NCBI GenBank assembly: GCA_963714015.1
Contig: OY970223.1
Span: forward strand, 672,001-736,000
Length of the DNA stretch: 64,000 nucleotides
From: Vulcanimicrobiota bacterium
GTDB taxonomy: Bacteria > Vulcanimicrobiota > Vulcanimicrobiia > Vulcanimicrobiales > Vulcanimicrobiaceae
Direction of reading: 5' to 3'
Shown: positions 20,190 through 36,851 of the stretch, piece by piece
Layout of the letters: each line of letters starts with the position of its first letter
Position numbering within the stretch: the stretch's first letter is position 1
Notes under the pieces: model-generated
Databases searched by the model: none
The model's input: the letters and a program-made list of their open reading frames with translations, nothing else
Told to the model about the DNA's origin: nothing
Position numbers and translations under genes: made by a program

Positions 20190-20960
20190 TCATTTCAGCA
20201 GGACGCCGCGCTGCGATTCCCCTTCCAGAAACTGCAGCATATGCCGGCCCGAATCGGTAGCCGCTTCGGACTTCATCACCTCGAGCGCTTCCGCCAAACG
20301 CAACTTCGAACCGTTGAGCAGCTTGTAGAACTTTTTGATCTCGGCTCGGTCTTCGTCGCTGAAGCTGGCGCGCCGAAGGCCGACGCTGTTCAATCCATAC
20401 GGTACGGCCGGGTCGCCTTCGACGAGAAAATACGGCGGAATGTCGCGGCGCACTTTACTGGCGCCCCCGACGAACGCGTAGCGCCCTACGCGGACGAATT
20501 GATGAAATCCCGCCATGCCGCCGATCGTCACGTTGTCTTCGACGAAGCAATGTCCGGCAAGCTGCGCCAGGTTGCTCATCGTCACGTTGTTCCCGACCTC
20601 GCAATTGTGCGCGATGTGCACGTACCCCAGCAGCAAACAGTCGTCGCCGACGACCGTTGCTTGGTCTTCTCCCGTCGCGCGCTGAATGCTGACGTACTCC
20701 CGAATGACCGTACGGCTTCCAATTCTCGTGTACGCGCGCTCGCCTTCGTATTTTTTATCTTGCGAGGCGGCTCCGATGGTCGCGAACGGATAAATCCGGC
20801 TATCCTCGCCGATCGAAGTCCAGCCGTTTACCACGACGTGCGCTTGCAGCACCGTCCCGCGTCCGATCGACACGTTCTCTCCGACGACGCAATACGGACC
20901 GATCTCGACGCCGCGATCGAGTTTCGCATTCGGATGGACGATCGCCGTCGGGTGGATCAT
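20190..20960 (-). CDS. lpxA: UDP-N-acetylglucosamine acyltransferase LpxA
   Basis: MIHPTAIV hexapeptide repeats, QDKKYEGE, IREYVSI, HIAHNC, LAGH, GLNSVGLRR. Confidence 0.97.
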   Translation of the reverse strand: MIHPTAIVHPNAKLDRGVEIGPYCVVGENVSIGRGTVLQAHVVVNGWTSIGEDSRIYPFATIGAASQDKKYEGERAYTRIGSRTVIREYVSIQRATGEDQATVVGDDCLLLGYVHIAHNCEVGNNVTMSNLAQLAGHCFVEDNVTIGGMAGFHQFVRVGRYAFVGGASKVRRDIPPYFLVEGDPAVPYGLNSVGLRRASFSDEDRAEIKKFYKLLNGSKLRLAEALEVMKSEAATDSGRHMLQFLEGESQRGVLLK

Positions 20961-20966
20961 TTAAAA

Positions 20967-21070
20967 GGCGCTCCGCCCTAGGCTCCGCGCCCCCCACGCT
21001 AAAGCGTGGGGCCCCCACGTCCTCATGGCGCTTAAAGCTCGTACTCGACCATCGCCTCCCCGAGGGCGCC
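20967..21070. repeat. 104-bp structured repeat element, single diverged copy between fabZ and lpxA
   Basis: GGCGCTCCGCCCTAGGCT.CGCGCCCCCC..GGGGCCCCCA..CTCCCCG.GGGCGCC shared with copies at 35647-36008; same length. Confidence 0.88.
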
Positions 21071-21102
21071 GGTGAGGTCTCTCCACGGGGGCTGCCAAGG
21101 CC

Positions 21103-21576
21103 TCAAGCATGCAGCACCGTCGCGTCAAAACCGAAGAGCCGCGGATCCGACGCAATTGAAAACATGAGTTCCGCCGAGACGACGAATTGATCTTCTACGC
21201 GTCCTTCGGCATGCACCCAGCCGATGTTGCGCTTGTGTTTGGTCAGGCGCACTTCCATCATGAAACGATCGCCCGGCACGACGGGGCGGCGGAATTTGCA
21301 CGCGTCGATACCGGCCAGGTACGGCGTCTTGCGAGAAAATTCGCCGGGCTCCAGGACGACGGCGCCGCCGAGCTGCGCAAGCGCTTCGATCATGTAGACG
21401 CCGGGCAGGAGCGGATTTCCCGGGAAATGCCCCGTGAATACGGGCTCGGTCGCGGTTACGTTCTTGTAACCGACGGCGCGCACGCCGGGCTCTAATTCCA
21501 CGATCCGATCGACCAGCAGAATCGGATAGCGGTGCGGCAAGATCTCCATGATCTGCCGGATGTCGAGTTCAGCCAA
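21103..21576 (-). CDS. fabZ: 3-hydroxyacyl-ACP dehydratase FabZ
   Basis: LPHRYP.LLVDRI, KNVT, FTGHFPGNP.LPGV..IEALAQ, FRRPVVPGD; TTG start 21576. Confidence 0.95.
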   Translation of the reverse strand: MAELDIRQIMEILPHRYPILLVDRIVELEPGVRAVGYKNVTATEPVFTGHFPGNPLLPGVYMIEALAQLGGAVVLEPGEFSRKTPYLAGIDACKFRRPVVPGDRFMMEVRLTKHKRNIGWVHAEGRVEDQFVVSAELMFSIASDPRLFGFDATVLHA

Positions 21577-21578
21577 GG

Positions 21579-22421
21579 CTATTGCACTTTCGCAGCCGGC
21601 AGAGGATTTTGGCGAAGCTTGCGCAGCTCGCTCGTGGCGAGGCAGTGCAGCTTGTGACCGCTCTTGATCGCCACGATCTCGCATTGCGGATATGCGCCGA
21701 GCAGCGCGAAGTCTCCAAGCAGGTCGAGCACTTTATGGCGCACCGGCTCGTCGGGCCAGCGCAGTTCCTGCATGGGTCCTTCGGGCGCAAACACCACGGC
21801 GTTCTCGAGCGTACCGCCCTTGGCCAGCCCGCGATCCAGCAGCGCCTGCACTTCGTGCAGATATCCGAACGTGCGCGCAGCCGCTATTTCGCGCTCGAAC
21901 ACGCCGGAATCCATTTCGGCGTCAAAGTATTGCGCACCGATGGGCGGAGCAAAGTCGGCGATGAAGCGCACGCGCAAACGCGCGGCGGGAAGAATGACGA
22001 TCGCGCGGTCGCCGTCCCGCAGGAAGACCGCCGAGAGCGGGACGTACGTCTCGCGAACTTCTTTTTGCCGGACGGTGCCGGCTTCATGGATGCGATCGAC
22101 GAAGAACTTGGCGCTGCCGTCCGCGACGGGAATTTCCGGACCGTCGACGTGGATCTCGGCGTTGGCAACTCCCGTTCCGAACAGTGCGGAAAGCAGATGC
22201 TCGACCGTGGAGATAGTGACGCCGTCTTTGCCCAAGACCGTTGCGCGCGCGGTTTCGACGACGAACTCGGCCAGAGCCGGAATGTTTACGCCGCCGGAGC
22301 GAAAGACGAATCCCGAATCGGGAGCCCCGGGACGCACTTCAATGCGGCAAGCAGCGCCGCTATGCAGTCCTACGCCGTGCACTTCGAACGCGTTGCGCAG
22401 CGTGCTCTGGTACTGCGTCAC
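21579..22421 (-). CDS. lpxC: UDP-3-O-acyl-N-acetylglucosamine deacetylase LpxC
   Basis: GVGLHSG, TVEHLLSAL, ARTFG, GGTLENA, RHKVLDLLGD, GHKLH. Confidence 0.96.
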   Translation of the reverse strand: MTQYQSTLRNAFEVHGVGLHSGAACRIEVRPGAPDSGFVFRSGGVNIPALAEFVVETARATVLGKDGVTISTVEHLLSALFGTGVANAEIHVDGPEIPVADGSAKFFVDRIHEAGTVRQKEVRETYVPLSAVFLRDGDRAIVILPAARLRVRFIADFAPPIGAQYFDAEMDSGVFEREIAAARTFGYLHEVQALLDRGLAKGGTLENAVVFAPEGPMQELRWPDEPVRHKVLDLLGDFALLGAYPQCEIVAIKSGHKLHCLATSELRKLRQNPLPAAKVQ

Positions 22422-33743: not shown

Positions 33744-35639
33744 TTAGAGGTCTAAGTTCTTGACGGATTTGGCGTACTCGAAAATGTACTGCTTGCGCGG
33801 TTCGACTTTGTCACCCATCAGGTCCGTGAAGATCTGCTCCGCCTCGACGGCGTCTTCGACGGTGATGCGTTTGAGCCGGCGGTTCCCGACCTCCATCGTC
33901 GTATCGGCCAGCTGCTCGGCGTCCATCTCGCCCAGGCCCTTGTACTGCTGGACGACGTAGTCTTTACCGTCTTCCCCGATGATGGACTTGAGCTCCGGCT
34001 CGCTGAACGCGTACCACTGCTTTTTTCCCTTGCGCACGCCGTAAAGCGGCGGCTGAGCGATGTAGACGTAGCCTTCTTCGACCAGCGGTTTCATCTGCCG
34101 GTAGAAGAACGTCAGCAGGAGCGTGCGGATGTGCGAACCGTCCACGTCGGCGTCGGTCATAATGATGATCTTGTGATAGCGCAGCTTGCCGGCGTCGAAC
34201 TCGTCGCCGAAACCGGTCCCCAGCGCCGTGATCATCGTGCGAATCTCTTCGTTCGAGAGAACCTTGTCCAGGCGAGCCTTTTCGACGTTGAGAATCTTGC
34301 CGCGCAGCGGCAGGATCGCTTGAGTATTCGGATCGCGCCCGCCTTTCGCGGTGCCGCCGGCCGAGTCGCCCTCGACCAAGAAGATCTCGCTCTCCGCGGG
34401 ATTATTGTTCTTGCAGTCGACCAGTTTGCCGGGCAGACCCGAGCCTTCGAGCGCGTTTTTGCGGCGCGACAGGTCGCGCGCCTTTTTCGCGGCCTCGCGC
34501 GCGCGCTGCGCCTGCATGCACTTGTCGATGATCGTGCGTGCCGATTTCGGCGTCTCTTCGAAGAAAAAGTCCAGGCGCTCGTTGACCAGCGTGTAGACGA
34601 TGTTGCGCACGCTGGCGTTGCCGAGCTTCGTTTTCGTTTGACCTTCGAACTGCGGCTCCGCCAGCTTCACCGAAACGACCGCCGTGAGTCCTTCCATGCA
34701 ATCGTCGGTAGAGAGATTGCTGTCGGATTCCTTGAGCATGCCGCGTTTCTTCGCGTAGCTATTGACCGAATTGCTGATCGCCGTGCGAAAACCGGTGAGG
34801 TGCATGCCGCCCTCGATCGTATTGATGTTATTTGCATACGACGAGATGATCTCGGTGTAGGTGTCGGTCCATTGCATCGCAACTTCGACGTCGACGCCGT
34901 CGCGTTCGTTGTGCGTCGAGATGATGGGATGCAGCGGGTCCTTCTTCTCGTTCAGCCATTCAACGAAGGAGACGATGCCGCCGTCGAACTTGAACGTGCG
35001 CTCGCGCACTTGCTCTCCCCGCTCGTCACGCAGATCGATCGCAAGCCCGCGATTGAGGAACGCTAATTCGCGCAGCCGCTTGGCCAGCACGTCCCAGTGA
35101 AACTCCGTGACCTCGAACATCTCGCGATCGGGAAGAAACCACTGCAGCGTTCCCGTGCCCTCCGCCGCGCCAAGCTTCTTGAGTTTCTGCACCGTCAGCC
35201 CGCGCTCGAACTTCATCTCCCACAACTTGCCGTCACGTTTGACGCGCGTGGTCATCTGCTCGGAGAGCGCGTTGACGACGGAGATGCCCACACCGTGCAG
35301 GCCGCCCGAAACCTTATAGCCGCCTTTGCCGAACTTGCCGCCCGCATGGAGGATCGTCATGATCACTTCGACTGCCGGCATCTTTTCTTCGGCGTGGATG
35401 TCGATTGGAATGCCGCGGCCGTCGTCCTCGACGGAGCACGATCCGTCCTTGTACAGAACGACTTTGATGTTCTTGGCGTAGCCGGCCAACGCTTCGTCGA
35501 CCGCGTTGTCGACGGCTTCGTACACGAGCTGATGCAGCCCCCGCTCCGCAGTGTTGCCGATGTACATGCCGGGGCGTTTGCGAACCGCTTCGAGACCCTT
35601 GAGGACCTCGATTTGCTCCGCGCCGTAGTTGTTACTCAC
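33744..35639 (-). CDS. gyrB: DNA gyrase subunit B
   Basis: LEAVRKRPGMYIG, LHAGGKF, SGGLHGVG, VEGDSAGG, PLRGKILN, MTDADVDG, YKGLGEM. Confidence 0.97.
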   Translation of the reverse strand: MSNNYGAEQIEVLKGLEAVRKRPGMYIGNTAERGLHQLVYEAVDNAVDEALAGYAKNIKVVLYKDGSCSVEDDGRGIPIDIHAEEKMPAVEVIMTILHAGGKFGKGGYKVSGGLHGVGISVVNALSEQMTTRVKRDGKLWEMKFERGLTVQKLKKLGAAEGTGTLQWFLPDREMFEVTEFHWDVLAKRLRELAFLNRGLAIDLRDERGEQVRERTFKFDGGIVSFVEWLNEKKDPLHPIISTHNERDGVDVEVAMQWTDTYTEIISSYANNINTIEGGMHLTGFRTAISNSVNSYAKKRGMLKESDSNLSTDDCMEGLTAVVSVKLAEPQFEGQTKTKLGNASVRNIVYTLVNERLDFFFEETPKSARTIIDKCMQAQRAREAAKKARDLSRRKNALEGSGLPGKLVDCKNNNPAESEIFLVEGDSAGGTAKGGRDPNTQAILPLRGKILNVEKARLDKVLSNEEIRTMITALGTGFGDEFDAGKLRYHKIIIMTDADVDGSHIRTLLLTFFYRQMKPLVEEGYVYIAQPPLYGVRKGKKQWYAFSEPELKSIIGEDGKDYVVQQYKGLGEMDAEQLADTTMEVGNRRLKRITVEDAVEAEQIFTDLMGDKVEPRKQYIFEYAKSVKNLDL

Positions 35640-36025
35640 TCTGAAAGGCGCTCCGCCCTAGGCTGCGCGCCCCCCGCGCAAAAGCGCGGGGCCCCCAAGA
35701 CAGTGGGGCGCGCATGATTCGTTTTACTCCAGAGACTCCCCGTGGGCGCCCCTATCGACGGTTTGCTTTTTGAAAGGCGCTCCGCCCTAGGCTGCGCGCC
35801 CCCCGCGCAAAAGCGCGGGGCCCCCATGACCGTGGGGCGCGCATGATTCGTTTTAGTCCAGAGACTCCCCGTGGGCGCCCCTATCGACGTTTTGCTTTTT
35901 GAAAGACGCTCCGCCCTAGGCTGCGCGCCCCCCGCGCAAAAGCGCGGGGCCCCCATGACCGTGGGGCGCGCATGATTCGTTCTTATCGAGAGCCTCCCCG
36001 TGGGCGCCCCAATCGACGTTTTCAT
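35636..36025 (-). CDS. Repeat-derived 129-aa ORF (3 x 43 aa) bridging dciA and gyrB
   Basis: ATG 6 nt after the dciA stop; TGA overlaps the gyrB GTG (GTGA); no recognisable protein family. Confidence 0.35.
   Translation of the reverse strand: MKTSIGAPTGRLSIRTNHARPTVMGAPRFCAGGAQPRAERLSKSKTSIGAPTGSLWTKTNHARPTVMGAPRFCAGGAQPRAERLSKSKPSIGAPTGSLWSKTNHARPTVLGAPRFCAGGAQPRAERLSE
35640..36025. repeat. Three tandem 129-bp repeats, each containing the 104-bp structured element
   Basis: Cores at 35647-35750, 35776-35879 and 35905-36008; near-identical; period 129 bp. Confidence 0.95.
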
Positions 36026-36031
36026 TGAATG

Positions 36032-36851
36032 TTATTTCCCGTAGAAGATGTCGTGGAGTTCGTCGCCCAGCAGATCGCGCACGACCGCCGGAACGATCCG
36101 CTCCGGATCCAATTCACTCTTGAGCAGCACGTACGAACTGGCAATCAATCGATCGCGAGACGTCAGCGCTTTTCCGCCCGTTCGACGCACTCGTTCGAGC
36201 GCATCGTGCCAGCGGCGCAGCAGACGCTGCCGTATCGCTTGATATTCGCGCTGCGTCAAATCCTCGACCAGCGGTGCTATGCCGGCGTATCCGAGCCACG
36301 GCACTTCAAAAAGCAGGCGAGCTACGGATGCATCCCGTTCTTGCGATTTTGCATTTGCGCAAGGCACGCAAAACGGCCCGGATTCCGGAACATTCCGGGC
36401 ACCGCACCGCATGCATTGTTTCCACCCCGCGACGGTTTTCGCCCGCTTGAACGCCTCCACGTCCTCCCGAAAACGTTCGAACGCGGCTTTGAGCGTTTCG
36501 ACCGGTTCGCGCTTGTCGCGACGGACGCGGCGCGCAGGTCGCGAGGGTCCGAAATTGGGAGCAGTCTGCTGCAAGCGGCCTACCCGGAAGCGGAGGCGCT
36601 CGAGCTCGACGCCGGCGTGGACGCGCAAGGCGTCCAATATCCGGTCGCTCAAGAAGGAGAGCTGCTGACTCCACGCGCCGGACCGCGTGAGCACGAGCAG
36701 TGAACCATGAGCTATTTCTTGCGGGCGGCTGTTTGCGGCGACGTCGTCGCCGACGACGCTGCTCCATGCGGCCCTTATGTACAACAGCGGATCGGCGCTC
36801 AAAGGCTGCAGTTGGTTCCCAGTCGGAGAGCGCCGCACCGAGCCGCTTCAA
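36032..36851 (-). CDS. dciA: DciA/DUF721 family protein with Zn ribbon (frameshift ~36805)
   Basis: AWSSVVGDDVAANSRP, LLVLTRSGAWSQQLSF, LRFRVG; CMRC..CVPC; between recF and gyrB; TTG 36851 overlaps recF stop. Confidence 0.8.

Follow-up and report, generated by a model that had tools for sequence, protein, structure and literature searches.

REPs, which measure 21–65 nt, lie mostly at 3' gene ends, their orientation often alternating, and are accompanied by a Y1 (RAYT) gene. Another type of short repeat, MIRUs (interspersed repetitive units of mycobacteria), reportedly goes back to Supply et al. in 1997. In the extracts of the review literature drawn on here, MIRUs are described as short repeats, single or in tandem, which are located between genes within operons and are co-oriented with transcription; the ends of their ORF overlap the flanking genes, insertion is at start codons with a -4 (ATGA) coupling, and genomes hold about 40–50 copies, with filled as well as empty orthologous sites and with G+C-rich internal inverted repeats (PMC12548453, PMC3184786). 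Neisseria REP2 and Borrelia IR-A/IR-B are presented in the same extracts as elements of 120–150 nt lacking terminal inverted repeats, whose RNA is predicted to form internal stem-loops and which lie immediately upstream of ORFs, supplying a ribosome-binding site and reaching the ATG (PMC3184786). REP2 is further described there as carrying a promoter and preceding a co-regulated gene set (PMC3184786).

In the window, i.e., the whole analysed stretch of 64,000 nt, the fabZ–lpxA spacer of 142 nt (20961–21102) holds one repeat unit. The locus comprises the following features:

21681–22421, minus strand: lpxC, upstream of fabZ (Pfam)
21103–21684, minus strand: fabZ, the upstream cistron, FabA-like dehydratase (PF07977, 7.8e-29)
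20961–21110, minus strand: bridging ORF of 49 codons, from an ATG 5 nt ahead of the fabZ stop to a TAA abutting the lpxA ATG
20961–21071, minus strand: single repeat unit in transcript sense (nhmmer and covariance-model matches)
21027–21070, minus strand: helix P1 of the unit, GGCGC (21070–21066) pairing with GCGCC (21031–21027)
20992–21011, minus strand: helix P2, the central hairpin, CCCCACGC UUUA GCGUGGGG (RNA sense)
20967–20991, minus strand: helix P3, GGCGC-GGA-GCC-UAG-GGC-GGA-GCGCC, with a symmetric GGA/GGA internal loop
20190–20960, minus strand: lpxA, the downstream cistron (Pfam Hexapep and Acetyltransf_11), its start codon abutted by the repeat unit

The core of the unit extends from CGGCGCC at 21071 to GCGCC at 20967 and is followed by the tail UUUUAA (20966–20961), which directly abuts the lpxA ATG (all on the minus strand); the covariance-model match covers 20954–21075 with 127.2 bits. 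P1 encloses a variable stretch of about 35 nt bearing the near-invariant UCGGGGAG (21063–21056), and the 3' GGAG of P3 sits 14–15 nt ahead of the start codon. The bridging ORF begins at 21110–21108 (minus strand), overlapping the fabZ stop TGA (21105–21103) as ATGCTTGA, and its TAA at 20963–20961 meets the lpxA ATG at 20960 as TAAATG, exactly as had been laid out in an earlier, sequence-only reading of this DNA, whose gene names fabZ, lpxA and gyrB are likewise confirmed by Pfam. The nearest relative of the lpxA copy, at 85%, is the copy before the NifU gene of the same genome.

A second occurrence in the window, used for comparison, is an array at gyrB:

36032–36838, minus strand: DciA-domain gene, before the gyrB array (Pfam)
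35642–36028, minus strand: three tandem units with a period of 129 (100, 97 and 89% identity), between the DciA-domain gene and gyrB
35636–36025, minus strand: gyrB-array ORF of 129 codons, crossing all three units; its stop is the TGA within GTGA, the start of gyrB
33744–35639, minus strand: gyrB (Pfam GyrB)

The lpxA and gyrB copies align ungapped at 67% identity over 129 nt, in agreement with the divergence without length change previously proposed. On the plus strand, the hairpins read CCCCACGC-TAAA-GCGTGGGG at 20992–21011 and CCCCGCGC-AAAA-GCGCGGGG at 35672–35691, and stem pair 5, A-T at lpxA and G-C at gyrB, is a true compensatory pair, as the earlier reading had it. Its further claim of different frames and unrelated peptides holds as well: the common hairpin is read one base out of register in the gyrB-array ORF (129 aa, i.e., 3 x 43) compared with the lpxA ORF, and BLASTP between the two peptides yields zero alignment.

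Both copies are members of a larger family, with 41 matches at 24 loci found by iterated nhmmer in the 3.56-Mb one-contig genome (G000) and 50 matches found there with the covariance model R1 at E up to 1. Units are single or form arrays of 2–5 with periods of about 108–133 nt (by coordinate subtraction), only some of which are multiples of three. Within the taxonomic family, Baltobacteraceae by title, R1 matches are present in 17 of 24 further genomes (15 of 22 when the unpublished G021 and G023 are excluded), and in none of the 5 and none of the 11 genomes searched from the two neighbouring families. A pattern scan of species-representative genomes returned at least 124 stretches, and among the 80 matches listed nearly all are titled Eremiobacterota, WPS-2, Vulcanimicrobiota, Baltobacteraceae, Elarobacter, Lustribacter, Aquilonibacter or Cybelea. 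Full-length copies of 55–91 bits were also encountered on contigs titled Limnocylindria, Binatia and Acidimicrobiaceae (L107, L138, L160, L169 and L170), which may reflect wrong binning or labelling, or else transfer. In the window, Rfam 15 yielded 0 matches that reach gathering scores, the best being at chance level with 13–14 bits (E 0.4–0.8), and a literature search of limited coverage found no paper on repeats of Eremiobacterota.

In transcript sense, the unit opens with a loose linker of about 8–20 nt and CGGCGCC; the near-invariant (U/A)CGGGGAG follows, and then some 25 variable nt that lead to GCGCC. Next come the central hairpin CCCC(N3-4)-loop-(N3-4)GGGG and the second hairpin GGCGC-GGA-NNN-loop-NNN-GGA-GCGCC, and the A/U-rich tail UUUYAAA (81% A+T) forms the end. 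GGAG is found in 53 of 84 units, and two of the three reading frames of the unit are mostly free of stops. Reduced units occur as well: in the five-unit array at mreB (genome 798974–799519; L035 2471–3030), the upstream four lack P3 and tail, leaving the last unit as the sole complete one, and mreB has an AGGAG of its own, placed between that unit's tail and the ATG.

The postulated conservation of structure is substantiated by covariation in all three helices. In the 29 units of G000, P2 and P3 are paired in 95.7% of cells, and double changes occupy 37 cells, compared with 13.7 ± 2.6 after shuffling. Across 84 units of 13 genomes, in an alignment fitted to the covariance model and hence biased toward P2 and P3, the paired share is 95.9%, double changes occur in 9 of 16 pairs, and 139 double-change cells compare with the 46.2 ± 4.9 obtained by shuffling, where 0 of 500 rounds came as high, a significance that is overstated because the copies are related. 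Slid controls for P2 and P3 pair at 38–65%. P2 shows double changes in 5 of its 8 pairs, pair 5 being AU in 49, GC in 15 and GU in 14 cases, and the inner pairs of P3 alternate between CG (43) and GC (32) and between CG (59) and UA (16). P1, which is outside the model used for aligning, has 92.1% of its cells paired and 27 double-change cells against 4.7 ± 1.9. An excess of G.U over A.C pairs (34 versus 16) mildly favours folding of the sense strand, which could be present as RNA or single-stranded DNA. The folding energy of the lpxA copy is ordinary when compared with shuffles (z of -0.95 in sense and -1.70 in antisense), so that the case for structure is carried by covariation alone. For the 5' half, RNAalifold on a MAFFT alignment suggested CCC.C/GGGG as a long-range pairing; this was dropped for the covarying P1. 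Averaged pair probabilities for the variable stretch inside P1 yield no consistent fold.

At 22 of the 24 loci of G000, the unit is in sense to transcription and co-oriented with a gene starting a few nt downstream, and in the relatives 45 of 50 terminal matches have an ORF of at least 60 aa starting at the unit end, an upper bound as at least one of them is spurious (L071). Exceptions in orientation are antisense copies at fabZ–lpxA in G009 and G003. From GCGCC to the start codon, the distance is 6–8 nt in 43 of 48 junctions from 13 genomes. Nearly all downstream genes are inner cistrons: a co-oriented gene ends a short distance ahead of the array. They are without common function (lpxA, gyrB, atpA, mreB, rpsS, rplN, rplE, rplF, rpmJ, prfA, fliG, fliH, flbD, a PASTA kinase gene, NifU, a nuoN-like gene and others). 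At one locus (L044, genome 2740125–2740290), a full unit abuts no start codon, the next gene being 276 nt away; this unit overlaps a weak opposite-strand match and may be part of a head-to-head pair.

Such a position invites the interpretation of a host cis-regulatory leader, in which P3 would hide or present GGAG and be opened by a factor or condition, making the downstream genes a translational regulon and the ORFs incidental. The fixed spacing of P3 before the start codon agrees with this, as does GGAG in its internal loop at -15/-14, at the edge of the Shine-Dalgarno range of the genome (peak at -11); UCGGGGAG is near-invariant, old decayed copies (fliH, rplN, rpsS and others) retain P3 and tail, and orthologous copies before rplF and rpmJ are kept across genera. 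However, the downstream genes have no function in common, GGAG is missing from 31 of the 84 units, the lpxA, gyrB and NifU copies are missing in congeners, no Rfam family is matched, and tandem arrays of 2–5 units are unexpected for a leader, which renders this alternative unlikely. A sigma-70 scan found 0 sites in either copy of the window; promoters of Eremiobacterota may differ from the pattern used.

At the junction itself, in 46 of 48 cases, a stop is located at -8 to +1 of the start codon, being either a TAA/TAG at -3/-4, as with the TAA at -3 of the lpxA copy, or the TGA of an NTGA start. The latter is found in 35 of 48 junctions, compared with 34–44% for A at +4 genome-wide, and most of the remaining junctions have TAA/TAG at -3/-4. 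Moreover, tails without TAA/TAG are on NTGA in 22 of 24 cases and tails with TAA/TAG in only 13 of 24 (Fisher p 0.008). Judged from these sequence patterns, the stop-start junction looks selected.

As to bridging ORFs, the sequence-only reading had claimed a conserved ribosome passage, proposed comparing the frequency of such ORFs with controls, and cautioned that open frames are common in GC-rich DNA. At locus level, a relay was defined as a frame open across the spacer with a stop at -6 to +1 of the downstream start, with upstream stops set by ORF length and GC3. Among the 21 loci of G000 with a defined upstream stop, 14 are open, 10 form a relay and 8 a relay with a start codon at the upstream stop; the 49-codon fabZ–lpxA ORF qualifies in all three respects. 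Control values by length class, from 623 element-free same-strand spacers of 70–600 nt (based on a crude gene call, and possibly containing unannotated genes), are 42–79% open, 7–30% relay and 4–8% relay with start. Hence, openness alone is ordinary, whereas the tight stop-to-start form is enriched, with about 3.0 relays and 1.2 relays with start expected by length class for the 21 loci against the observed 10 and 8. ATGA or GTGA is present at the upstream stop of 10 of the 21 loci, and the 7 loci without a bridging frame are mostly multi-unit arrays, with a period not a multiple of 3, and degenerate copies. One automatic rule was also applied to the 37 loci where units are full length and an ORF precedes them, a start codon being counted if it lies in the open frame and no more than 18 nt from the upstream stop. 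Of these loci, 33 are open, 31 form a relay and 27 a relay with start; four multi-unit arrays, the antisense copy and one other fail.

At the level of the unit, a stop-free frame running through the core and ending at -8 to +1 is found in 44 of 48 terminal units from 13 genomes, compared with 27.1 ± 3.1 for dinucleotide-shuffled cores (maximum 36 in 1000), 23.1 ± 3.3 for column-resampled cores and 25 for reverse-complemented cores, figures that overstate independence because the copies are related. The mean number of open frames per unit is 1.6, versus 1.19 in column-resampled units. Thus, the earlier claim of conserved passage is partly supported: it finds support in the strict relay (44 of 48 against 23–27 in controls) and not in mere openness, so that the earlier reading appears correct in outline and too strong on this point. 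Absent from it is the main anatomy of the family, i.e., the abutment on start codons, the mobility and MIRUs as known analogue.

These counts also bear on the possibility of a structural repeat of the REP or ERIC type, serving to stabilise mRNA, to mark it for processing or to bind a factor at the DNA level, whose open frames would result from G+C-rich composition combined with purging of operon-breaking insertions. G+C-rich hairpins in operon spacers, openness not above that of control spacers and the unexceptional folding energy are all in line with this. Nevertheless, reverse-complemented cores share composition and stems with the actual ones and still fall far behind in relay formation (25 versus 44 of 48), and neither the junction stop in 46 of 48 cases with its TAA–NTGA compensation nor the strict sense orientation and the abutment on start codons rather than 3' ends conforms to such a repeat. 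In addition, a terminator scan of the units found no terminator-like site, and the Y1 (RAYT) transposase (PF01797) has 0 matches in G000, with 6 of 14 control genomes matched. Overall, this explanation seems improbable.

Anchored on the element, the relay of the 48 terminal units runs in frame 2 in 23, in frame 0 in 10 and in frame 1 in 6 cases, with more than one frame in 5 and none in 4. As the frame differs among copies, the kept feature is the reading path and not the peptide, for which the lack of conservation had been correctly predicted. ATG-started ORFs of 49 and 129 codons may suggest small proteins important in themselves; this can be considered very improbable in view of the differing frames, the two peptides without similarity, array periods that are often not multiples of 3 and an own start behind GGGGAG in only 14 of 48 units. 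With the same count of starts behind the motif leading into the relay ORF, GGGGAG(G) was rejected as Shine-Dalgarno sequence of an own mini-cistron. A different contact with an upstream gene is seen at L031 (genome 161012–161250), where a 444-codon frame enters the first unit by 39 nt and stops at the TGA of a conserved ATGAGG; here, the upstream gene seems to obtain its end from the element.

Mobility is evident from the comparison of orthologous sites. The lpxA copy is absent in both congeners, G001 and G002, and the gyrB array is absent in these as well as in G007 and G009 from two other genera. The fabZ–lpxA site is empty in 19 of 22 other family genomes. Of the other three, G017 carries a degenerate copy in sense; in G009, a second, diverged lpxA start flanks a full antisense copy, and the antisense copy of G003 is cut down. 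Absence in the congeners together with antisense copies in two other genera shows that the element is mobile, and the occurrence of both sense and antisense copies across genera indicates that this junction was hit more than once. Over the 22 genomes, the junction is an NTGA overlap in 3, TAAATG in 1, a 4–21-nt spacer in 12 and a longer one in 3, and the overlap, as in G043, G045 and G042, is probably the ancestral state. The copy at the NifU gene is absent from five relatives. Empty gyrB and NifU sites have short spacers or TAAATG/TGAATG and no NTGA overlap. In turn, the rplF and rpmJ copies are nearest to the same-site copies in G007 and G001, so some insertions are old.

At the junction of a penicillin-binding protein (PBP) gene and a PASTA kinase gene, the congeners G001 and G002 are empty with a TTGA/GTGA overlap, and arrays are present in G000, with 3 units flanked by ATGA...ATGA, and in G013. 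This junction is in line with the MIRU pattern, in which a tetranucleotide is directly repeated around filled sites and single at empty ones; the gyrB and NifU sites are not. G009 has a mini copy lacking the interval from the 5' ACGG to the AGCC of P3, and G007 just the last 14 nt of P3 and tail, GGCGGAGCGCCGTT, at the 3' end of the upstream frame (L265–L268 for G007, G009 and G013). Together, these sites show a decay series. Decay down to P3 and tail is also seen before fliH and rplN, at genome position 3028231 and within the array of rpmJ; the copy at rpsS is mostly full length.

Regarding the insertion process, no general or clean target duplication was seen at the compared sites, and inspection by eye for terminal inverted repeats, which mark MITEs besides an autonomous parent element, revealed only the 5-nt GGCGC/GCGCC common to both unit ends. 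Some sites show individual peculiarities. In G009 (L227, G009:C122), the antisense unit at 2283–2404 lies between the working start GTGATTCATCCAAC and a relic ATGATCCACCCAG that immediately follows the TAA of fabZ; the lpxA start region thus appears duplicated around the copy, and the cut-down version in G003 is alike. At its left edge (window 36001–36031), the gyrB array reads ATGAAAACGTCGATTGGGGCGCC, which is similar to the gyrB start of G001, ATGTCAACGAATTATGGCGCC, hinting at a junction formed at the common GGCGCC at this particular site. The idea derived from gyrB and from lpxA of G009 that the 5' linker is a duplicate of the first downstream codons was discarded as a general rule, matched and mismatched pairs scoring 5.62 and 5.72 (p 0.70). 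In G015 (L246), a sense copy at 875–992 ends about 510 nt before lpxA, about where fabZ should start; in this case, the lpxC–fabZ junction seems to be occupied and not fabZ–lpxA.

Taken together, the family is a real, structured and mobile intercistronic repeat and, by analogy, would add a new family to the MIRU kind. The fabZ–lpxA spacer probably holds a young copy of this non-autonomous repeat of Baltobacteraceae (Eremiobacterota), functioning in the manner of MIRUs. Ribosomes finishing fabZ, or starting at the ATG just before its stop, would read through the unit, thereby melting the hairpins, and, having terminated right over the lpxA start codon, would reinitiate at it. An insertion of this type would cost the operon little, which might be why such copies survive, and the hairpins may be kept for propagation of the element itself or for mRNA stability. 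Against this relay stands that hairpins melted by ribosomes leave the conservation of RNA structure unexplained by the relay itself, and also that antisense copies exist in G009 and G003 and that neither a transposase partner nor terminal inverted repeats nor a clean target duplication was found. It is also conceivable, albeit rather doubtful, that the family spreads by a mechanism recognising operon stop-start junctions as such, without a transposase of known type or terminal inverted repeats, the helices being the signal and the relay ORF the price of tolerance; the fabZ–lpxA junction was indeed hit independently in different genera and in both orientations.

Should the relay as the preferred reading be correct, a second, unrelated repeat family of MIRU design would be at hand, selfish and surviving in essential operons (ribosomal proteins, gyrB, lpxA, atpA, mreB) by ribosome hand-through, from an almost uncultured phylum and with clean structural covariation. 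Its life cycle would be visible from insertion via tandem growth and internal deletion to a remnant kept as translation start region, providing testable material on the reach of termination-reinitiation over 100–500 nt of folded RNA and on the targeting of operon junctions. For annotation, the family is relevant as it produces spurious ORFs of 40–170 codons and displaces start-codon calls in Baltobacteraceae genomes.

In comparison with the systems outlined at the beginning, as far as the extracted accounts describe them, the family resembles REP/BIME and ERIC/BOX elements as interspersed G+C-rich palindromic repeats in presumably transcribed intergenic DNA, but, unlike REP/BIME, it forms direct repeats that run in sense and are tied to start codons, with no PF01797 match in G000. 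With REP2 and IR-A/IR-B, as portrayed in the same extracts, it shares a similar length, internal stem-loops, the apparent lack of terminal inverted repeats and the position directly before ORFs; in contrast to REP2, the sigma-70 scan of the window copies gave no promoter-like site, and the copies of the family are placed between cistrons of operons, upstream of functionally unrelated genes, and include a read-through ORF in their design. Compared with the available descriptions of MIRUs, the present unit is longer (108–133 nt against about 40–100), has three clearly covarying helices and a frame varying between copies, and uses NTGA or TAA/TAG at -3/-4 as junction stop, with clean 4-nt direct repeats at some sites only. 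It belongs to another phylum, and the likeness is one of design as given in reviews. Within these bounds, the design matches: both families occupy operon spacers in sense orientation, form tandem units with a start-codon-coupled ORF, reach about 40–50 copies per genome, leave empty as well as filled sites and bear G+C-rich internal inverted repeats.
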